Below are positions 6,601-21,321 of a DNA stretch of 25,802 nucleotides, in pieces. A program made the position numbers and the translations under genes. The DNA comes from a virus, in the IMG/VR virus record IMGVR_UViG_3300043294_000406; one strand, 5' to 3'. Positions within the stretch are counted from its first letter, which is position 1, and each line of letters opens with the position of its first letter. The notes under the pieces were generated by a model, which did not search any database, was not told the origin of the DNA, and saw only the letters and a list, made by a program, of their open reading frames with translations.

Positions 6601-7912
6601 GAATGTCACTTCCAGTTTCACTACGACGCAGAACCAGACCCTGACCACGACTAGGACGACCACGTTCCCGACGACGCTCACGCAGACCCTCACGTCCACG
6701 GCGACCTATCCGACCACGATAACTCAGACCCATACCCTCACTTCGATGATAGCCACTGGGACGAAGACGATCACAAAAGCAAAGACCACGACCGAGTACA
6801 CCAACTCCACTTCGACAGGAGTCCTTCCGCCGTTCGACCCTCAGAACAACCGATACATCCCCGTCGGGACCGTCCTCTATCTCTGGTACGGCATGAACGA
6901 GACTTCATGGAAATGGACGGGTGGTCTTGGGACTTCGCATTGGAACGACACGAACCAGGGCATAGTCGTCGATACGCCGGACATCGGCTACTACGCCAGC
7001 CTGGACAACAACACCCTGGCCTGGCAGCTTTCCAACATGAAGAGCGCCGGGATCTCTGTCATAATCGCGTCCTGGTGGGGCATGGGCAACAACACGTCGG
7101 GGTCCAACCAGAGGCTTGACGAGGGGATCAACAACGCCACCCTGAACCTCTTCCGCTATGTGGAGTCCACGAAGAACCTCTGGAACTTCAGGATCGCGGT
7201 GATGGTCGAGCCCTTCAACACCACGGACCTGACAGCCGCCGATTACACGAACCTCTACAACTACGTGCAGAACACCTTCTATCGCCCCTTCAACGACATC
7301 GTCTTCTACAAGGACGGGAAGCCCCTGCTCCTGTCCTTCAACCCCAACTACCTTCCTTCCCTCCCAGCCGCCTCGGTCTTCACCTACAGGTCCGTGGGCG
7401 GGGTCCCCAACCCGGTCGACTGGTACTTCTGGGAGGGCGGAAGCTACAACGACTCCTCCGGGGGGACGGCCCAGATCCAGAACTACGAGTACGCCCCTGG
7501 GATCTCCGGGGACGGCGAGGTGGGCGCGCTCTGGCGCTACGACGACTATTACCTCTACGCGGCAGGAGGCAGGAGCGGGTACATGCGGTTCGACGTGACC
7601 GGTTCGCAGGGCATGTACAACTACGAATGGAACTACATAATCGCGCACAGGTCGGACGTGAAGTTCGTCCTCCTCTACGGCTGGAACGAGTATCACGAGA
7701 GGGTGGCCCTCGAGCCGCACGATGACCTGACGGTGGGAGGCTTCAGCGGGGTCGGGAACACAGGATACTACGTAGATACGCTGGAGAACACGCCGGACGT
7801 CGTGCCTGGCCAGCCTGGGACCGTGAACAGCTTCGCCTACTATATGGCAGGGGTTGTGGTCGTTCTCGCCATAGTTCTGGCGATCTTCGCCTACATGAGA
7901 AGGTTCAAATGA
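3692..7912 (+). CDS. Large membrane-anchored spike/adhesin (~1406 aa): signal peptide, Cys/Thr-rich beta domains, Thr-rich stalk, GH99-like endo-alpha-mannanase domain, C-terminal TM
   Basis: N-terminal hydrophobic signal ending VHSA|FA; Thr-rich stalk at ~6310-6815. GH99/GH71-like motifs LYLWYG, TPDIGYYASLD, AGISVIIASWWG, IAVMVEPF and GWNEYHE lie at ~6854-7790. The C-terminal TM is followed by RRFK. Many N-x-S/T sequons. TTG at 3689 is an alternative start. Confidence 0.85.
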   Translation: MNPRSLLWSLLLLAIFLAVLPSVHSAFATSTKVQDCHNAGSGATLTCALASAVTNGDLLVCGPGAEYSSAPTFSVTDSIGTTWVTQSSSSQSSASGSNTGYIYESTTITTGGASDTITIHFTASVHSSEVNCAEFTGVSSATAAGSATPGGATTGIGSTYTVPVTSYTPVTGDLVIAIAFTPSCVNVGTFAAPSGWTGYLTLSAGATGSNTNCDNPGDDPDVTNVAFAYFLSYSSGSTTCAGTVTPQTKFVTSHTDKYVSVCSYYTAVVSVTYHLKLHVMENGATISTAFVFSGSCNVNDSTISGNNVIHGITAVASCTPTITVQADGTYTRYRFNSSSASATTATFTTCPSGTCTVILVLDYYFETAHVIDASVANGYNFATSITGLTLTTTLAGTAGAALCSLSFTVAATDYCGSSSTYYFTDYAATISGYTNPLTWTGHTTDAYQFNTCSPVTTGSHDTIGCPYYYVLYNTPSAAVSQGGSYRFATQLTAVTVTVTLYGSTGQTGCTITFTVAVSDSCVSPIWADANTVLGGFPSTLSNPPSGYAYSKGTCDTAETTGGNTQICYYIEQYAFTAEITYNPSGNFPSGLSVIPTGQLGGSSGQNLCTVTTSDSHTAIHSCTIDAGSVATFAATLTGSATNVKLCRASSCSSPTTVTPSAGGTSNVNYWPEMSQTFKAFTVNGVWNDLSFTVLGTVFGTPSTTVCTGFGWAGNVSTFCSGAADNGTTLYVVRDIIFGGLPPPHQKWVGCLSGTNCVVAVPITAGNVFNLYFYAEYSNTFTATPSANWDAGRNVSLSAMIHGQQVIPGGCSWIPSAGTSTALYCTVYTDVNYVVGCPDSNIVSGTVWSSGEWVSVKITTVDGSYGCTYTLLAATSTTTTSTSTVTSTTTTSTSLSFTTTTSTTQTQTQTETSHTTTTETSSTTTTTTKPTTTTESLTYTTTESTTLTQTQTQTLTQNFTSTFTTVQTTTENVTSSFTTTQNQTLTTTRTTTFPTTLTQTLTSTATYPTTITQTHTLTSMIATGTKTITKAKTTTEYTNSTSTGVLPPFDPQNNRYIPVGTVLYLWYGMNETSWKWTGGLGTSHWNDTNQGIVVDTPDIGYYASLDNNTLAWQLSNMKSAGISVIIASWWGMGNNTSGSNQRLDEGINNATLNLFRYVESTKNLWNFRIAVMVEPFNTTDLTAADYTNLYNYVQNTFYRPFNDIVFYKDGKPLLLSFNPNYLPSLPAASVFTYRSVGGVPNPVDWYFWEGGSYNDSSGGTAQIQNYEYAPGISGDGEVGALWRYDDYYLYAAGGRSGYMRFDVTGSQGMYNYEWNYIIAHRSDVKFVLLYGWNEYHERVALEPHDDLTVGGFSGVGNTGYYVDTLENTPDVVPGQPGTVNSFAYYMAGVVVVLAIVLAIFAYMRRFK

Positions 7913-7933: not shown

Positions 7934-8200
7934 GTGCGGATAATCGGGACTTACATACGGCTCAGCGACGGCCAGAAGGTCGACGTCGAAGAGAAGGGGG
8001 GCAACAGGGTCAAAGTCCTGCTCCTGTTCGGCGCGAAGACCCGGAAATACGCGAACAAGGAGCATAAGGTCCTCCACGTGGCGACCGACGATATGACGAT
8101 CTATTCCGAGTTCAAAACGAATTATCCGACCATGAACTTGGACCTGATCGAGACGGAAGAGGAGAAGGCAGAGGCAGCCCCAGCGGTGAGCCAGCCTTGA
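7934..8200 (+). CDS. Hypothetical soluble protein, 88 aa
   Basis: GTG start, GC3-rich codons; the stop overlaps the next TTG (TTGA). Confidence 0.75.
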   Translation: MRIIGTYIRLSDGQKVDVEEKGGNRVKVLLLFGAKTRKYANKEHKVLHVATDDMTIYSEFKTNYPTMNLDLIETEEEKAEAAPAVSQP

Positions 8201-8340
8201 TCCCGGAGGCGGCGAAAGCAGCCCTCGACATGGGGATACTGTCCAATCCTATCGAGTTCGCGGAGGCCATCTCGCTTTCAGGGATCGCCATCATCTTCGG
8301 GTACTTCGTGTTCAAGGTCATCTACGACTATGTGAAGTAG
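8197..8340 (+). CDS. 47-aa single-TM protein, candidate minor virion protein (not in ORF track)
   Basis: Translates as MIPEAAKAALDMGILSNPIEFAEAISLSGIAIIFGYFVFKVIYDYVK*; TTGA overlap with the upstream stop. Confidence 0.7.
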   Translation: MIPEAAKAALDMGILSNPIEFAEAISLSGIAIIFGYFVFKVIYDYVK

Positions 8341-8408
8341 AACAAGGCCAGAACAGCCTCCTTTCGCCGTGCGGGGAACGACTCAACCACGTGGTTGCTC
8401 GGATGCCC

Positions 8409-8414
8409 TAAATA
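8409..8414 (+). promoter_or_regulatory. TATA-like box of the candidate coat-protein gene
   Basis: TAAATA lies about 30 nt upstream of the ATG at 8443 in a 100-nt intergenic gap, consistent with a leaderless archaeal transcript. Confidence 0.5.
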
Positions 8415-8442
8415 CGGTCGCTTCCTACCATCAGAACCGAAA

Positions 8443-8562
8443 ATGACTACCAACATCGACCTAACGCCTGTGATTAACATAATCATAGCGATAGTGCCAC
8501 TGATCGTAGTCCTCGCTGTCCTTAAGATGCTAGTGGACATGTTCAAGGGCTTCAGTGTGTAG
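8443..8562 (+). CDS. 39-aa hydrophobic single-helix protein, candidate major coat protein (not in ORF track)
   Basis: Translates as MTTNIDLTPVINIIIAIVPLIVVLAVLKMLVDMFKGFSV*. It has its own TATA-like box and aligns without gaps to the C-terminus of the next protein. Confidence 0.8.
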   Translation: MTTNIDLTPVINIIIAIVPLIVVLAVLKMLVDMFKGFSV

Positions 8563-8584
8563 CCATCGAGGAGATGAGCCCGCC

Positions 8585-9475
8585 ATGCGGACCTCTTCTA
8601 GACGGCTGGCCACTGCGGTTCTTGCAATATCGCTGCTAGCTCTCTTCGTTCCTTCAGCCATCTACGCCCAAGGTTCCGCCCAGACCATCTCCTTCGCAGG
8701 TGCGGACTTCAACAGCACAGAGCCCACGATCACGGCTCTTGCTCCTGCCGCGCAGCCCCAGTGGAGCGCGGTCGTCTTCACCGCCCATGAGTTCTACAAC
8801 CTCACTTCGGCCCTCACGGTAGACTTCATCAGCTCTTCGAGCCCCGCCACTCTCGCCAAATCCACCGCGGCCCCGATCGCTTACACCCAGAGTGACGGGT
8901 GGTTCCAGTATCTCAGGGTCCAGATGTTCGAGAACGGCCACGCCTACGTCTACTATCTCCAGAACTCTTCCGCAGGGACTCCACTTGAGATCTTCTCGTG
9001 CTCTGCGTGCTGGTATGCCAACCAGACGACGCTGGGGTCTCTCAGCGGCGCAGCCGGGCATGAAGCCAACATCAACTACGGCCAAGAAGTCTTCGTAACC
9101 ATCTCGAGCGATAGCCTATACGTCGGGGCCATCAACTCCACCACGGGAGCCCTTCAGTACTGGGTCAACGGGTTCGGCCTCACTTCGGTCGGGCTTGGCG
9201 GCGGCTGGTACGTCGGGGAGACCCTTAACGGAGGCCTCACCGACCTCGGAGCTGCCACAGGTTCATACAAGATCCCAGCGGTAAGCGCAGGAGTAGCATA
9301 CCCGTGCATGATGACGGGCATCGGCTACGTCCAAGTCGAAATCGACCCCCCTGGCTTCACGACCACCCAGACCATCACATCGATGATCGGCATCGTCTAC
9401 CAGATCATCCCGCTCTTCATCCTCCTCGCCGTAATGGGCCTCATCGTCAACGTCTTCAAGTCCTTCAAAGTGTAG
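8585..9475 (+). CDS. 296-aa virion-type protein: N-terminal hydrophobic helix or signal, beta-rich domain, C-terminal coat-protein-like helix
   Basis: GAGGAG at 8568-8573 precedes ATG 8585 (MRTSSRRLATAVLAISLLALFVPSAIYA). The protein ends IGIVYQIIPLFILLAVMGLIVNVFKSFKV. Confidence 0.85.
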   Translation: MRTSSRRLATAVLAISLLALFVPSAIYAQGSAQTISFAGADFNSTEPTITALAPAAQPQWSAVVFTAHEFYNLTSALTVDFISSSSPATLAKSTAAPIAYTQSDGWFQYLRVQMFENGHAYVYYLQNSSAGTPLEIFSCSACWYANQTTLGSLSGAAGHEANINYGQEVFVTISSDSLYVGAINSTTGALQYWVNGFGLTSVGLGGGWYVGETLNGGLTDLGAATGSYKIPAVSAGVAYPCMMTGIGYVQVEIDPPGFTTTQTITSMIGIVYQIIPLFILLAVMGLIVNVFKSFKV

Positions 9476-9485
9476 GGACAGCGAA

Positions 9486-9498
9486 CCCCTCTTTTTCT
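9486..9498 (+). terminator. Pyrimidine/T-tract, putative archaeal terminator after the coat-gene pair
   Basis: CCCCTCTTTTTCT begins 11 nt after the 9475 stop. Confidence 0.4.
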
Positions 9499-12500: not shown

Positions 12501-14883
12501 CTATGGATCTTACGTGGCTGGCGGACAGGAGAGCGGTTCGGCCCCTAACTTGGCCGTGAAGCTATCCAACTTCATGCAGGAAGACATGACCCTCTGCCAT
12601 ACGGCTAGCAACTACGCCTGCTCAGCCACGACCTACACCGAATACTACGGTGCCATGTTCCCGAGCTATGCCAGCAGCCTTTCGAGCAACTGGTATTACC
12701 AGTATAGCACGTTCCCGGAGGCATCCTTCTACGACAGACTGCCTTATGGCAATACTTCAGTCAGCTTCGGACCTCTGAACCAGTACGGCTACGGCTACTC
12801 CCCCACAACCCAGTTCGCAGCTCCCTATATCTCTAGGCTGGCGATCACCAGCTCACCAGTGCTGCTTGCGGCCTTTCCCGAAATCTACTTCTCCGGGTCG
12901 ACCATATCTGTGGATGGTGCTTGGGTGATCAGCGGCCAGAAGAACGGCTTCACGCCAGCGACCCAGGCGCTCAGAGCAGAGTACACGGCCCTGACTGGCG
13001 GGGGTCTGACTACGGCCGAGGCTCTTCTGGACAGCGCGGGCTGGGACGGGATGGGGACCAGCCTGACCGTATGTCTGTCGATCATCTGCACCGCCCAGGC
13101 CAGCTATCCCACCTATGACACGGCCACCTTCCTGGCCGCGGCCTCGGTCGTGGGCCAGATGGCCGGGACGAACTCGCGCTGGGCCAACGAGGCCCGGCAG
13201 GCTGCCGGCGTCCTGGTGGCGGCCATGTGGCCAGGGATCGGCTACATCACCAACTACAACATCCCGCAGCCTATCACCGACTGGAGGTTCGTCGGGGGAG
13301 AGATGGCGGCCTACGAGCCGTTGAACGTGGACCCGGCCTCTTACACCACGAACCAGGCTGGCCCCTTCGCCGACGTTTCAGGCTGGCTGCAGATCATGGG
13401 GATTAATGGGGTCCAGCCGCCCGAGTCTGCGGGCTTCATCCCCGTGGACACCGAAGCCACGGGACTCACCGCGCAGGCGCTCTACACGTTCCTCGAGTAT
13501 CTTCCGAACCAGCCTGCCATCAACACCTTCGGGATTGCGGGTAGCCCGCTCGGGAACGTCTCTCCCGTGGTAAGCGGCTGCAGCACCTACAGCACCGCAC
13601 TTACCGGCTACTTCCTGTTCAATCAGACCAGCTTCGGCGACTGCCAGGTGTCCTACACCACCAGGATCACGCTTCCGGCCGACATCAATTACGCTTCGCT
13701 TCAGGCCTACTTCCACGTGAACGGGACGTTCACATACAGCGGCTCAGCCCCCCAGGGCATATACGCCCAGGTCTCGCTGACCGACACCGGCGGCAACAGC
13801 TATGGTTTCGGCCAGAACATCACCTTCCTGACGCGGTCTCAGTCTCTGGACAAGGAGATCGGGGTCTCGGTTGAGACGAACCAACCACTTCCGGCAGGAG
13901 GCTATCTCCTGACTTACAGCTTCTTCTTTCAGGGCAAAGGAACCTTCGACAGGAACAGCCTTTCCCCTCTAGGTCTCAGAGACTACGTGAGGATAGACCA
14001 GGGAGCGTTCCTGCCCAACACCCTGACGTACAACTTTGTCTCTGACGCGAATTGGAACGACTTCACAGACCTTCAGTGGACCACGACCAGCGGGGGTGCT
14101 GCCAGCGTGACCAACAACTTCGGGACCAGAGGGCTGGAAATCAATCTGGCTTCCGGCAGCACTTCGAATGAGTATGACGTCGAGACCATCAGCTACCATC
14201 CAATCTATTACGGCCTCGGCACCACCTTGCGTTTTACCGGGAACATCACGGGGCAGGCTGCGTCGACCTATCTCTGTTTCGGGATTTCGACAGTCTCCGA
14301 CAACAGCAAACTGTTCTCGGCCCAGGCCAGCTATGCCGACTTCTGCGACAACTCCGCGGGGAGCGCCCTGATCGGCTTCAGGAACCAAGGTGGGGCTGTA
14401 CAAGGCTTCATCCCCAGCTCTACCGTGAACGGGAAGAACCTTCAGGTGGGCATGGAGATCGTGGGCAAGACCCTCGTCATAACCTACACCACTGCGTCGG
14501 GGTCGGCGGTGTCCGTTTCCTTCACGATGAACTGGAACACCAACAACTTCTACGTCTACTCCTACGCCACGACGAAGGCGACTTCCACCCAGCACGTCTA
14601 TCTGCTCAGCGAGTCCGTCCAGGGCGAAGGTGCCTCGGTCAGCATCGGTCCTTCGCAACCCATCACGACTACTTCGTCGTCTGCGACTACTTCCGCGAAC
14701 AACACCGCGTTTCCCACCATCACCGTCCAGAGCGCCAGCAGCGGCAACTGCCCCAAGGGCAAGGTCTGTACTGACCCGCCGTTCGACTCCACCATCGCCG
14801 CGGTCCTCGTCGTCATCCCGGTCGTAGCGCTGATAGCAGTGGTGGGTTTCGTAAAGCGCTACCTGAGCCAGACGAAGCTGTAG
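9514..14883 (+). CDS. 1789-aa membrane-anchored surface/virion protein: signal peptide, two Ig-like repeats flanking a thermopsin-like domain, further beta-sandwich domains, C-terminal TM
   Basis: Signal VLAVLVVSLFLASALSVISLGG. Ig-like repeat pair TTIVTVSCLPPSIQ...CTASV (~9796) and TTATIVSCNPASVS...CRATV (~10912). Thermopsin-like motifs at ~10165-10900. C-terminal TM IAAVLVVIPVVALIAVVGFVKR. Many sequons. Confidence 0.85.
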   Translation: MTPNQRARKSKVLAVLVVSLFLASALSVISLGGSSATAAAPTAPAYGGQDFYFGLMSNNSTLGIRYPSYASSTWPNWSFWGQLQTGLVEPNPGSGTTIVTVSCLPPSIQINAYTTCTASVSDATGSIAGEEISFDITSSSVPAPGGAIDGGGYCNILVNSCSIRFHGDVVGWGTVEATYWGGDMQGNSRSQGHFTINVLSAPYYEGWYNSLVSESGCLEVKPSAVVTLSQNVAIQQTNSTAAGQNGFSIQMNIFGGASDPGQTDDWLAGWDQVVVVALPQGTSGLWYYSGTVEVWNEQAGIVFDGPWLNFSTNQPAPAAGWTFDLAATYKNSTSYTMTGGQMKVYNALGTQVGSTMNIPIVMPPFPTTIPPQGMQYGMFTPFFKSAVYEVNLVGQYNAAIAKFNSGAGTITYSSSDGQAVQQYGSGFPNGLPCGYSAGNTGENSNLHYGATSASGNSLVQSFNTQVTTATIVSCNPASVSTATSISCRATVTGYSGTITGETLSWKTSGSGSFSSTTCILTSSGSPATIGCSVSYQAPNNLPFAVTTSYPGDSNNFASFGYASITGTPGSYQKITQNGCDNQYPTGSGWEETVETNPQVQGTPYGCGQWIDQQDGFVQSVSSTNSSQVAYQGIIETQDDIVSGTGLTFSVQMTDLNAGSGTMLTFWDAKCVDQGLPQNGPQICSSDGTADTGSWKYTMWSVGDMGGRFAFIDPTGGVHRLTAAGSTAQVDSVEFLVRANTNNTLHIYYNIGSGYILGATYSSPSLAWENTDGGEALLWASTKNTAVQYSSFAYYSVWAPNQVLAEGTFDNNMMNLARHYEVISGGPYSGDAVMTDTEAPPLVAALSGGTGGTAATLYSGMAPSSTLTSFLGLGAPSSTCSNPCSVSQTFSTGNTVYYTLTNGATDKLVILISTNPASTAWRTVYTIVIHSTWSSYSTGSRVMSLYLGNDLLVSGLNIHTNQSGTTYTVTEPFGLPGNRYVSRHITYVTSLLLSELGYGSYVAGGQESGSAPNLAVKLSNFMQEDMTLCHTASNYACSATTYTEYYGAMFPSYASSLSSNWYYQYSTFPEASFYDRLPYGNTSVSFGPLNQYGYGYSPTTQFAAPYISRLAITSSPVLLAAFPEIYFSGSTISVDGAWVISGQKNGFTPATQALRAEYTALTGGGLTTAEALLDSAGWDGMGTSLTVCLSIICTAQASYPTYDTATFLAAASVVGQMAGTNSRWANEARQAAGVLVAAMWPGIGYITNYNIPQPITDWRFVGGEMAAYEPLNVDPASYTTNQAGPFADVSGWLQIMGINGVQPPESAGFIPVDTEATGLTAQALYTFLEYLPNQPAINTFGIAGSPLGNVSPVVSGCSTYSTALTGYFLFNQTSFGDCQVSYTTRITLPADINYASLQAYFHVNGTFTYSGSAPQGIYAQVSLTDTGGNSYGFGQNITFLTRSQSLDKEIGVSVETNQPLPAGGYLLTYSFFFQGKGTFDRNSLSPLGLRDYVRIDQGAFLPNTLTYNFVSDANWNDFTDLQWTTTSGGAASVTNNFGTRGLEINLASGSTSNEYDVETISYHPIYYGLGTTLRFTGNITGQAASTYLCFGISTVSDNSKLFSAQASYADFCDNSAGSALIGFRNQGGAVQGFIPSSTVNGKNLQVGMEIVGKTLVITYTTASGSAVSVSFTMNWNTNNFYVYSYATTKATSTQHVYLLSESVQGEGASVSIGPSQPITTTSSSATTSANNTAFPTITVQSASSGNCPKGKVCTDPPFDSTIAAVLVVIPVVALIAVVGFVKRYLSQTKL

Positions 14884-18673: not shown

Positions 18674-19108
18674 ATGTCAGGAATCCTCTCTGAGTTCAAG
18701 ACGGTCGACAAATCCGTCGCCGACGGGCTCGACAAGCTGTCGTGGGTCGAGCCTGGGAAGATCGAGCAGTTCACCGACCTTACCTACACCGAGGTATGCA
18801 ACATCACGTATCTGCTCACGGTGGCGCAGACGCGCCAGACCGGCTATTTCCCCTTCACCGAGAAGGTCTCGGAGGCGTCCACCGTCAAGGGGACGGCCCC
18901 GATAATCACGAAGGAGGTCCCGCTGACCTACCGCTTCGGGAAGAGCATGGACCTCCTGGCCAGGACTTACATGCAGACGAAGGTCTCGATGGGGCGCAAG
19001 TCGAGGATAGAGACGCAGGGGGTTGCGAAGTCGTTCGGAGGAGGACAGTTCCAGCAGCAGCAGGGGATGCTTGGCCGGTTCAGGGGGTGGGTAGGGAACC
19101 ATGTCTGA
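18674..19108 (+). CDS. Hypothetical protein, 144 aa, probably part of the morphogenesis module
   Basis: Coupled to its neighbours. It contains a basic motif YMQTKVSMGRKSRIE reminiscent of small proteins found near ATPases in archaeal viruses (recalled, unverified). Confidence 0.75.
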   Translation: MSGILSEFKTVDKSVADGLDKLSWVEPGKIEQFTDLTYTEVCNITYLLTVAQTRQTGYFPFTEKVSEASTVKGTAPIITKEVPLTYRFGKSMDLLARTYMQTKVSMGRKSRIETQGVAKSFGGGQFQQQQGMLGRFRGWVGNHV

Positions 19109-19502
19109 GAACAGAGTGAGCCGCTATGTCCATGTCGAGGGAGCCCCGATCTCGCTGCCCAAGGTCAGCGCGCCGTCACCGAGGCCGCGCCCTAGCCCCG
19201 TTTCCGGCTTCAGGCAGACCGCAGGGAGATTCCAGCAGATCAGAGCCGACAGGGCCAAAGGCCAGTACACGGGACGCTTCGCCAGAGCCAGCAAGGGAAT
19301 CGGCGGCGCAAGGTCGGGACTCAGGAAAGGAGGGAACGCCCTGAAGTCCGCGAGGGACTTCGCGCACAGGCACAGGATGACCTCGAAGGCGAAGGGCGGG
19401 AGGACGCCGGGAGAGCTAGCCGCTGCGACGATGCACGACGCGAGGCAGAACATACCGCTCATCGGGACCAAGGCGCGGAAGAAGGGGATCCGGAACCAGT
19501 GA
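19101..19502 (+). CDS. 133-aa Arg/Lys/Gly/Ala-rich basic protein, candidate genome-binding protein
   Basis: Strongly basic composition, no TM; overlaps both neighbours. Confidence 0.7.
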   Translation: MSENRVSRYVHVEGAPISLPKVSAPSPRPRPSPVSGFRQTAGRFQQIRADRAKGQYTGRFARASKGIGGARSGLRKGGNALKSARDFAHRHRMTSKAKGGRTPGELAAATMHDARQNIPLIGTKARKKGIRNQ

Positions 19503-19965: not shown

Positions 19966-21321
19966 TTGGTACTGGTCATCGGCGTCCTCGGCGCGTGGGG
20001 GAAAGGCAAGACCATGACGCTCAACATGCTGGCCGACCTCATCAAGCAGGACCCCGTGTCTTTGGGGCTGCCCTCGGTCCCCTTGAACTACATGAACTTC
20101 AAGTCAATCTACATGGACGGCTACCTGATGATAGACCCGCCCCCCGACCTGCAGCGGATAACATTCGACCCCAATCATATCGAGGGGCAGCCTCCGAATC
20201 AGTATCCTGACCTAAAGCCGAGGACCGCTCCCGTCATCGACTTCCTCGAGTTCCTGAGGCAGGCGAGGAGCCCCGTGCCGATAATGATGTTCCTCGACGA
20301 CGTCTACGGCTGGCTCGCCAGCTACTTCTTCGGCTCCAAGTTCAACCAGATAGCCTTCCGCCTCCTCGCGGCGGGGCGAAAGAAGAACCTCAACATAGCG
20401 GAGTCCTCGGTCCGCTTCAAAGACGTCGACCCCCGCCTCCGCGCCCTCCACTCGCACTTGTTTCTCCCCCGTTTCTCGGAGGCCTTCGAGACCGTAGCCG
20501 TGGAGAGATACGTGGTCGACGTCTTCGAGGACAAGAAACTGAACCCCGACATCTACTACTCCGCGAAGGCCTACTACGGGACCTACGACACAAACGAGGT
20601 GATCGAGTCAGTGTACGACTCCGGAAGGGGCGCCACGGCGGTGAACAGCCTGGGGGCGGTCCCCATCGGCCACAACGGGCACTCCGATTCTGACCCGGCT
20701 AAAGAAACCCTGCCAGATTTGGCCCTCCCTCTCGGAAACGACGGCCATTCCGCTCCGACTGCCCCAATCAGGGCCGTAGACACCATGCTTCCACGCCCCA
20801 GAACCATGCCGACAGCTCCCGCGACCGCGCTGGGGGCGAAAAGGACCCCTGACGGCTACGAGGCCTACGCCGTGGGCTTCCAGTGGCAAGGGCAGATCGC
20901 CAGCGAGTACCAGTCGGAGGGGTACTTTGTCAGGCAGGGCTTCAAGGCCAGCGACCCCGACCTGCTCTGCTACTCCGACCGGGAGATGACCAAGCCCGCG
21001 AAGGTGGTGGCGGTCAAGGCCTTCCACCTGATCAAGTCCGCCGACGCATTCACTCCAGACCCTTTCACACCTCTCTTTTCAGAGCGGAAGGGGCTAGGGG
21101 ATGGCAGGGGTAGCTGGAGCAGCGGGCGGAAGAGGCACGTGGGGGCTAGCGGAAGGACGATAACAAGGACAGACATAGAACCAGAGATAAGGACGAGCAG
21201 GCTGCTGGGCATACCGTGCGAGCTGGTCATAGTGAACACCAGGAACGGGGCCAGGGCCACGTTCGGGATCACTGATCAGTTCGAACGATTACCAACACCA
21301 TCAAGCCTGAATGATGATTGA
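19966..21321 (+). CDS. Zot/pI-like P-loop ATPase fused to a C-terminal Hjc-like PD-(D/E)xK domain
   Basis: Walker A GVLGAWGKGKT at the N-terminus, Walker B IMMFLDDVY, and GRKKNLNIAESSVRFKDVDPRLR matching the RK...vD..lR pattern. A Pro/Ala linker follows, then EYQSEGYFVRQGFKASDPDLL...KVVAVK. Confidence 0.82.
   Translation: MVLVIGVLGAWGKGKTMTLNMLADLIKQDPVSLGLPSVPLNYMNFKSIYMDGYLMIDPPPDLQRITFDPNHIEGQPPNQYPDLKPRTAPVIDFLEFLRQARSPVPIMMFLDDVYGWLASYFFGSKFNQIAFRLLAAGRKKNLNIAESSVRFKDVDPRLRALHSHLFLPRFSEAFETVAVERYVVDVFEDKKLNPDIYYSAKAYYGTYDTNEVIESVYDSGRGATAVNSLGAVPIGHNGHSDSDPAKETLPDLALPLGNDGHSAPTAPIRAVDTMLPRPRTMPTAPATALGAKRTPDGYEAYAVGFQWQGQIASEYQSEGYFVRQGFKASDPDLLCYSDREMTKPAKVVAVKAFHLIKSADAFTPDPFTPLFSERKGLGDGRGSWSSGRKRHVGASGRTITRTDIEPEIRTSRLLGIPCELVIVNTRNGARATFGITDQFERLPTPSSLNDD

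Follow-up and report, generated by a model that had tools for sequence, protein, structure and literature searches.

A near-invariant 39-residue membrane peptide and a copy of its helix on a neighbouring secreted protein in a virus-like element from peat

The stretch of DNA considered here, IMG/VR virus record IMGVR_UViG_3300043294_000406 (25,802 nucleotides; henceforth the window), carries a compact two-gene unit in which a very small gene, g39, directly precedes g296, a gene for a 296-residue secreted protein. An earlier note on this DNA had placed a 39-residue and a 296-residue open reading frame (ORF) here, reading the former as a minimal coat protein and the end of the latter as an ungapped copy of the same helix; both ORFs lie on the + strand at the positions given for them below. 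The unit and its associated signals are as follows:

8408..8415, + strand: TATA-like box CTAAATAC, 28-35 nt before the g39 ATG, a putative promoter element
8443..8562, + strand: g39, a 39-residue single-pass membrane peptide, recognised by sequence, conservation and the ratio of non-synonymous to synonymous divergence (dN/dS)
8568..8573, + strand: Shine-Dalgarno-like GAGGAG in the 22-nt spacer before g296, a putative ribosome-binding signal
8585..9475, + strand: g296, by sequence a secreted β-rich protein with an N-terminal signal peptide (about residues 1-28) and a C-terminal membrane anchor
9359..9472, + strand: the C-terminal 38 residues of g296, a copy of the g39 helix, supported by BLASTP, shuffled peptides and a profile
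9490..9498, + strand: T-tract TCTTTTTCT, 15 nt past the g296 stop, terminator-like with a presumed role in ending the transcript

The g39 peptide starts with an N-terminal tail rich in Ser and Thr, continues in a hydrophobic helix whose proline (Pro19) is invariant and closes with a short amphipathic tail (K28, D32, K35) with a net charge of about +1; its single hydrophobic segment spans residues 13-31 of the 39. The g296 protein opens with a basic start, a hydrophobic run and a small-x-small site (IYA/Q), a region that is poorly conserved and looks like an ordinary signal peptide, which speaks against the earlier suggestion that this N-terminal helix might be the first helix of a hairpin. Four cluster homologues of g296 (48-83% identity) were recovered, and the protein had no match in Pfam, PHROG or NCBIfam. 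Its AlphaFold model is poor, with a predicted local distance difference test score (pLDDT) of 35 on a 5-row alignment, and the ESM Atlas model is likewise poor and gave no usable structural match.

The two proteins are joined by their helices. BLASTP aligns residues 2-39 of g39 with residues 259-296 of g296 without a gap, 16 of the 38 positions being identical and 27 similar (E 2e-9 with composition correction), an alignment longer than the one originally claimed. The ungapped BLOSUM62 score of this pair is 87, as against a mean of 15.4 (standard deviation 5.7) and a maximum of 40 for 2000 shuffles of the peptide, while the other hydrophobic segments of the window, including signal peptides and the anchors of two surface proteins of 1407 and 1789 residues, score at most 26 against g39. 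Because shuffles and other window segments score far lower, the likeness is specific and not a general property of membrane helices. Further, when the window is translated in six frames, a profile of the family picks out precisely these two helices (E 6e-21 and 1.5e-15). These comparisons indicate that g39 is homologous to the C-terminal helix of g296. A complex prediction of the g296 tail with three g39 copies scored 0.01 in a run without controls, a value that speaks neither for nor against their pairing. Additionally, one further segment could possibly be a remote third copy of the helix:

14794..14868, + strand: C-terminal anchor of the 1789-residue surface protein, a marginal profile match (E 0.045 among 655 six-frame ORFs of the window) with the IP....L.AV.G pattern common to both

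A short proline signature, a hydrophobic helix and a basic tail at the extreme C-terminus of secreted proteins are also what an archaeosortase-type C-terminal sorting signal would present, in which case the 39-residue ORF would be a stray or decoy copy of such a signal. This explanation is scarcely credible, as none of the NCBIfam CTERM sorting models matches g39 or g296 at E values up to 1, and a stray copy would neither be the most conserved gene nor keep a start, a promoter-like box and a fixed length of 38-41 residues in dozens of clusters.

The small ORF that had been put forward as a coat candidate is strongly conserved. In tblastn comparisons with nine loci, g39 is 76-100% identical, against 23-60% for other genes of the element, and it is the best-conserved gene in every related locus. 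A word search recovered 11 clusters of 38-40-residue proteins that are 76-97% identical, two of them called with longer 5' extensions, and in all four contigs that were fetched a 39-residue ORF lies directly 5' of the g296 homologue, having been overlooked by the gene caller in two. Non-synonymous (dN) and synonymous (dS) divergence, estimated by the Nei-Gojobori method for g39, for whole g296 and for the last 38 codons of g296, are as follows:

g39, window versus L005: dN 0.038, dS 0.75, dN/dS ~0.05
g39 codons 9-38, window versus L005 and versus L010: dN 0, dS 0.59 and 0.15 respectively, dN/dS 0
g296, whole gene: dN 0.11-0.49, dS 0.49-1.24, dN/dS 0.23-0.40
g296, last 38 codons (the homologous helix): dN 0.18-0.54, dS 0.21-1.18, dN/dS 0.44-1.1

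Constraint on the free helix exceeds that on the anchored g296 copy about tenfold, and since synonymous divergence in g39 equals that in g296, the constraint acts on the g39 peptide and not on the DNA. The pattern points to g39 as a genuine gene under very strong protein-level selection, and the difference in constraint between the free and the anchored helix offers a clean case for how helix-helix packing limits sequence change. Two other sources of the conservation were considered: an overlapping RNA or DNA signal is ruled out by a synonymous divergence the same as that of the neighbouring gene, and a pseudogene remnant is ruled out by the pattern of selection in the Nei-Gojobori comparison.

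This slow evolution also bears on whether g39 might be a holin-like or viroporin-like protein of egress or superinfection exclusion. The peptide is small and single-pass, as such proteins are, and 8 of 19 family members faintly match a holin PHROG; these matches, however, are at noise level (E 0.5 or worse), holins evolve fast whereas g39 is the slowest-evolving gene of the element, and g39 heads a surface-protein operon rather than a lysis cassette, with no lytic enzyme recognised next to it. A holin-like role is accordingly very unlikely.

The arrangement of the window recurs in eleven loci (the window, L005, L008, L009, L010, L012, L013, L015, L020, L021 and L023), in each of which the small gene is followed, 18-32 nt on, by a gene for a signal-peptide protein of 213-300 residues; the spacer carries a purine-rich GGAG or GGTGA motif in most relatives. 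In most of these loci the downstream secreted protein ends in a g39-type helix. The best match is that of L012, those of L015 and L023 are weak, and the 213-residue protein of L020 gave no match to the helix profile. The TATA-like box and the closing T-tract that had been attributed to the pair are both present in the window. A TATA-like A/T-rich hexamer or octamer stands 26-43 nt before the g39 start in most of the eleven loci, with no clear box upstream of the small gene in L012 and L020, and each of the nine loci examined for a T-tract has 4-8 consecutive T no more than about 40 nt past the large-gene stop. These recurrent features argue that g39 heads a conserved two-gene unit with a promoter-like box and a terminator-like T-tract. 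The surroundings of the unit are less fixed: in the window the block running from g135 to a P-loop ATPase gene lies downstream of g39 on the same strand, while in the more distant L008, L013, L015, L021 and L023 this block is inverted and diverges from g39 across a 66-72-nt spacer.

The helix itself belongs to a wider family. A 39-column profile built from free peptides and anchors, searched against 1.84 billion representatives, recovered 47 proteins (cluster representatives) at E <= 1e-3. They take four forms, namely free peptides of 34-41 residues; proteins of 47-93 residues that begin with a basic, hydrophobic segment closing in ...LLG(Q/E)T and continue in a linker rich in Ser, Thr and Asn; proteins made of two or three units in tandem; and proteins of 200-300 residues with the helix at the extreme C-terminus. 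One proline is invariant throughout, and the typical pattern reads (I/V)(V/I)P(L/I)... A(V/I)L.M ... F. Among distant relatives, some of 60-80 residues bear an additional hydrophobic stretch at the N-terminus, perhaps a leader. A three-unit version comes from L019, a Desulfurococcales chromosomal contig into which an element of some 12 kb that carries an SSV-type integrase (PF16795) has integrated; positions 10001-10801 of L019 hold a 197-residue protein made of three tandem leader-plus-helix units, then a 65-residue ORF with a fourth unit, and then an 854-residue protein. The relatives of g39 span mesophilic peat archaea to hyperthermophilic Desulfurococcales.

These data help to weigh a reading in which g39 is a membrane partner or assembly factor of g296, i.e., a chaperone, cap or anchor regulator acting by helix-helix pairing, and not a bulk component of a particle. 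The g39 and g296-type genes are always adjacent and apparently co-transcribed, and their homologous helices would lie parallel in the membrane, as such a partnership would need. However, a dedicated partner should co-vary with its client, whereas g39 is near-invariant (dN 0-0.09) next to a client helix with dN 0.18-0.54, and distant relatives have two to four tandem units with no comparable large client directly fused. On balance this role is distinctly unlikely for g39.

The likeness of g39 to coat proteins already described was assessed at the level of motif, profile and gene order. The earlier note had pointed to a LVPLF-type motif in the fusellovirus proteins VP1 and VP3, and this is present: both SSV1 proteins have LVPLFYIL in the last helix and YK(I/L)YK at the end. 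Like g39, VP1 and VP3 are small and very hydrophobic, have paralogous copies encoded side by side in archaeal elements, and carry (V/I)PL(F/I) close to the beginning of the last helix, with aromatic residues and Lys in the tail; they also resemble the longer g39 relatives, which have a second, N-terminal hydrophobic segment. Unlike g39, which has one helix in 39 residues, they are two-helix hairpins of 73-92 residues, and SSV1 is about half the size of the present element and has a different ATPase. The kinship with VP1 and VP3 that had been supposed did not hold up in profile comparisons. Alignment of the family with SSV1 VP1 and VP3 by hhalign covers just 11-12 columns around VPL at a probability of 0.8-3.6%; the hidden Markov model (HMM) of the family found nothing among six-frame ORFs of SSV1, His1 and HRPV-1; and only one of 19 members matches phrog_11172 (SSV1 VP1), at E 0.082, while SSV1 VP1 and VP3 themselves match phrog_11172 and phrog_5402 at E 1e-15 to 1e-73. 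The best annotated PHROG match is to phrog_2186 ("virion structural protein"), which six of 19 members match over positions 40-70 of its 80-residue profile, with a best E of 0.023 that is below a safe threshold.

A comparable picture emerges for the coat proteins of inoviruses. Ff-phage pVIII ends in FKKF, and the Pf3 coat, like g39, has no signal peptide. There is a resemblance in gene order, as the inovirus coat gene, like g39, stands just before that of a signal-peptide, C-terminally anchored minor protein, with an ATPase downstream that is Zot in inoviruses and Zot-like by fold in the window. Inoviruses (Tubulavirales) are unlike the present element in having genomes of about 4-15 kb and a rolling-circle Rep, against a dsDNA-sized element of more than 25 kb in which Pfam and NCBIfam scans revealed no Rep family. 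At 39 residues with one membrane segment, g39 falls within the coat criterion used for inovirus detection, namely 30-90 residues and a single transmembrane domain (Roux et al. 2019). Kinship with inovirus coats nonetheless failed to find support, with no Pfam match to these families up to E 10 and one of 19 members matching phrog_1646 (major coat protein) at E 0.067. The resemblance of g39 to fusellovirus and inovirus coats is thus, as far as these profile comparisons reach, one of architecture and not demonstrated kinship. The pleolipovirus HRPV-1 shares the order of a small membrane protein, a signal-peptide, C-anchored spike (VP4), a few membrane proteins and an ATPase (VP8), but its small protein VP3 has 132 residues and is unrelated to g39 (phrog_5900).

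Next to the two-gene unit lies a conserved module that comprises membrane proteins, a very basic protein and an ATPase similar in fold to Zot/pI. Three genes of the window beyond the unit might contribute to a particle or to its loading with DNA:

8197..8340, + strand: g47, a second small single-pass membrane protein (47 residues, TTG start) just upstream of g39, ending in KVIYDYVK
19101..19502, + strand: g133, a very basic Arg/Lys-rich protein of 133 residues, recognised by composition, in a conserved module just before the ATPase
19966..21321, + strand: a 451-residue P-loop ATPase, characterised by an AlphaFold model, Foldseek and VIA

The g47 protein is 46-78% identical in closer relatives and unrelated to the g39 helix, and may be a further particle component. 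The g133 protein, 27-81% identical in relatives, is by its composition a candidate DNA-condensing protein, a role that would be functionally comparable to that of the basic VP2 of SSV1. PHROG scans of g133 and of g135 and g144 found nothing, nor did a profile of g144 against PDB sequences. The window additionally encodes a C5 DNA methylase, a DUF5131 protein, a weak XerA-like recombinase, an Ig-domain protein and the two huge anchored surface proteins of 1407 and 1789 residues mentioned above. Pfam, PHROGs and NCBIfam scans of the element turned up no family of capsid, portal or terminase proteins, and the same scans yielded no recognised rival to g39 as a capsid candidate, in keeping with the original proposal.

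The ATPase consists of a P-loop domain (residues 1-210) and a domain with the fold of the archaeal Holliday-junction resolvase Hjc (residues 300-448), joined by a Pro/Ala-rich disordered linker of about 80 residues; both domains are well modelled in an AlphaFold prediction with an overall pLDDT of 69. In Foldseek searches of the PDB the first rank goes to the N-terminal domain of Neisseria Zot (2R2A, E 2.4e-6, template-modelling score 0.58 by target), the top BFVD matches are inovirus Zot proteins, an AMD virus protein and an Acholeplasma phage L2 protein, and the nearest ESM Atlas clusters carry PF05707. VIA-align gives Z 10.4 for Zot, with a root-mean-square deviation (rmsd) of 4.2 over 164 aligned residues, and Z 13.2 for the C-terminal domain against Hjc (1GEF; rmsd 2.3, 105 aligned). 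In the model, then, the C-terminal domain is clearly Hjc-like, and the ATPase appears nearest in fold to Zot/pI, the assembly ATPase of filamentous phages, membership of that family not being established. It differs from inovirus pI/Zot in having the Hjc-like domain and no membrane segment. Comparisons with the ATPases of other archaeal viruses were not significant, whether with SSV1 B251 or with pleolipovirus VP8 (hhalign probability 0.6%, hmmsearch E 9.3), the sole thing noted in common with VP8 being a KDVDPxLxxL stretch.

As for the element as a whole, the contigs that carry it mostly measure 20-50 kb and derive from about 19 metagenome studies of peat and wetland; the 20 public runs listed as carrying it are likewise from peat or wetland, and all are DNA runs. 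When GTDB species genomes were scanned with the alignment of the small proteins, three loci were recovered, all in metagenome-assembled genomes labelled Nitrososphaerales or Nitrososphaeria, on short contigs (7-20 kb) for which mis-binning is possible. In one 175-kb contig a relative of the ATPase adjoins genes of cofactor F420 biosynthesis (CofC, CofD and F420 ligase), from which it follows that related elements integrate. The window measures 25.8 kb and the contigs 32-38 kb. Judged from these sequences, the element is an integrative, virus-like dsDNA element of about 32-38 kb in peat archaea, the relatives of which are binned with Nitrososphaeria.

The closest published analogue is IME1 of Dehalococcoides. 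The IME1 elements are integrative, exceed 20 kb of dsDNA and encode a pI-like ATPase along with small hydrophobic proteins; they dominate viromes in which filamentous particles occur, and are proposed to represent a virus of the budding or filamentous type (Nesbo et al., bioRxiv 10.64898/2026.09.15.751708). Both lack tailed-phage hallmarks and combine a pI/Zot-like ATPase module with small hydrophobic and anchored surface proteins, although the host of IME1 is bacterial (Chloroflexota). The small proteins of IME1 have been matched by structure to SSV1 VP1 (10.64898/2026.09.15.751708), whereas no such match was obtained here by sequence. The 39-residue peptide and its helix copy on a neighbour are not described for IME1 (10.64898/2026.09.15.751708), and the g39 family differs from the small-protein family of IME1 and is unannotated. 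By analogy, the present element looks like an archaeal counterpart of the IME1 kind.

This analogy has a bearing on a non-viral reading, in which the element would be an integrative plasmid, conjugative or vesicle-forming, and g39 and its neighbours would build a surface or transfer apparatus or a plasmid vesicle. The want of a hallmark capsid gene in Pfam and PHROGs and of matches in IMG/VR, the several huge anchored surface proteins and a P-loop ATPase fold class common to DNA translocases would all suit a plasmid. Such an identity is nevertheless unlikely, in view of the first rank of Zot/pI in three structure libraries, the failure of Pfam and NCBIfam scans to reveal any VirB4, TraG or relaxase-type match, and a gene layout that agrees with the budding or filamentous virus lineage proposed for IME1 (10.64898/2026.09.15.751708). 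Moreover, even in a plasmid g39 would probably remain the main membrane subunit of the transfer structure.

Taken together, the sequence data suggest a role for g39 at two levels of specificity. In the broader form, for and against which the chances appear evenly balanced, this tiny single-pass peptide would build the main membrane or coat subunit of the transfer particle of the element. The narrower form is rather less likely than not, and would make g39 the major coat or envelope subunit of an undescribed temperate dsDNA virus lineage of Nitrososphaeria and other archaea, assembled at the membrane with a pI/Zot-like ATPase. A major membrane-embedded subunit of a particle is a better fit than a regulatory protein, a holin or a sorting signal because the constraint on every core position of g39 is extreme, because g39 heads a surface-protein unit with a promoter-like box, because tandem units are amplified in relatives and because there is no other recognisable capsid gene. 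The looser helix copy on g296 is what would be expected of a minor subunit that fits into an array of the free peptide.

Under this proposal, g39 would enter the cell membrane unaided by a signal peptide, its N-terminus facing out and its C-terminus in, and copies of it would pack side by side in a dense homotypic array. That array might make up the principal membrane-embedded or coat layer of a particle leaving the cell by budding or extrusion. The g296 protein would be exported by Sec, tethered by its looser copy of the g39 helix and slotted into the array as a minor, outward-facing subunit. The DNA could be neutralised by the basic g133 protein and not by the coat tail, and the ATPase might load or resolve the DNA at the membrane. 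The weak charge of the g39 tail, together with the separate basic g133, argues against a pVIII-like coat in direct contact with DNA and favours a lipid-containing or spindle-shaped or pleomorphic particle, or a filament in which the DNA is neutralised by another protein.

Several observations weigh against a particle role for g39. The family shows no significant similarity to any known coat family in the Pfam, PHROGs, hhalign and HMM comparisons, and a cytoplasmic tail of only about +1 is unlike those of DNA-contacting inovirus coats. The main structural protein might in truth be one of two other conserved proteins, g135 or g144, for which no fold was recognised. Members of the helix family are present, too, in the L019 and L020 elements, which have no such ATPase within 10 kb. 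The ATPase sequence does not match Pfam Zot (PF05707), and in VIA-align Zot ties with Rad51, RadA and STIV B204 at Z 10-11, these RecA-like ATPases not being separated. Further, no relatives were recovered when IMG/VR viral contigs were scanned with g296 and the small-protein alignment, or when GenBank phage and archaeal-virus records were searched for g39 and g296; tblastn of the ATPase, g39 and two proteins of the L019 element against the latter records likewise gave no match. The particle role is, in sum, a prediction from sequence.

The wider interest of the family lies in part in detection. Non-icosahedral archaeal viruses and virus-like elements evade standard searches because they are without capsid, portal and terminase genes, and a near-invariant 39-residue peptide offers a short and specific marker for a whole family of such elements. 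Were g39 the coat protein, the recently proposed class of dsDNA budding or filamentous viruses with pI-like ATPases would extend from Chloroflexota to archaea. As the major coat or envelope subunit, g39 would moreover be smaller than any major structural protein known from archaeal viruses. Additionally, larger surface proteins would be mounted on the particle by a very simple rule, with a copy of the coat helix as the anchor, in a natural counterpart of phage display.

Two minor observations concern other parts of the element. A GH99-like domain with a WNEYHER motif is fused to the end of the 1407-residue surface protein (window 6850-7800), and in relatives it forms a separate anchored protein of 312-456 residues (L013 10950-11888, L015 7417-8508 and L005 7604-8974), the gene for which directly follows the g296-like gene in some of them; the L005 version has a weak match to Pfam Glyco_hydro_99. 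Finally, a DDE transposase (rve, IS240-like) lies 5' of the methylase gene at positions 32-1165 in L001, L003 and L004 but not in L002, in contigs that are otherwise near-identical, and the length of the methylase gene varies accordingly (560-652 residues). The presence or absence of the transposase, together with these differences in methylase length, suggests a polymorphic insertion.

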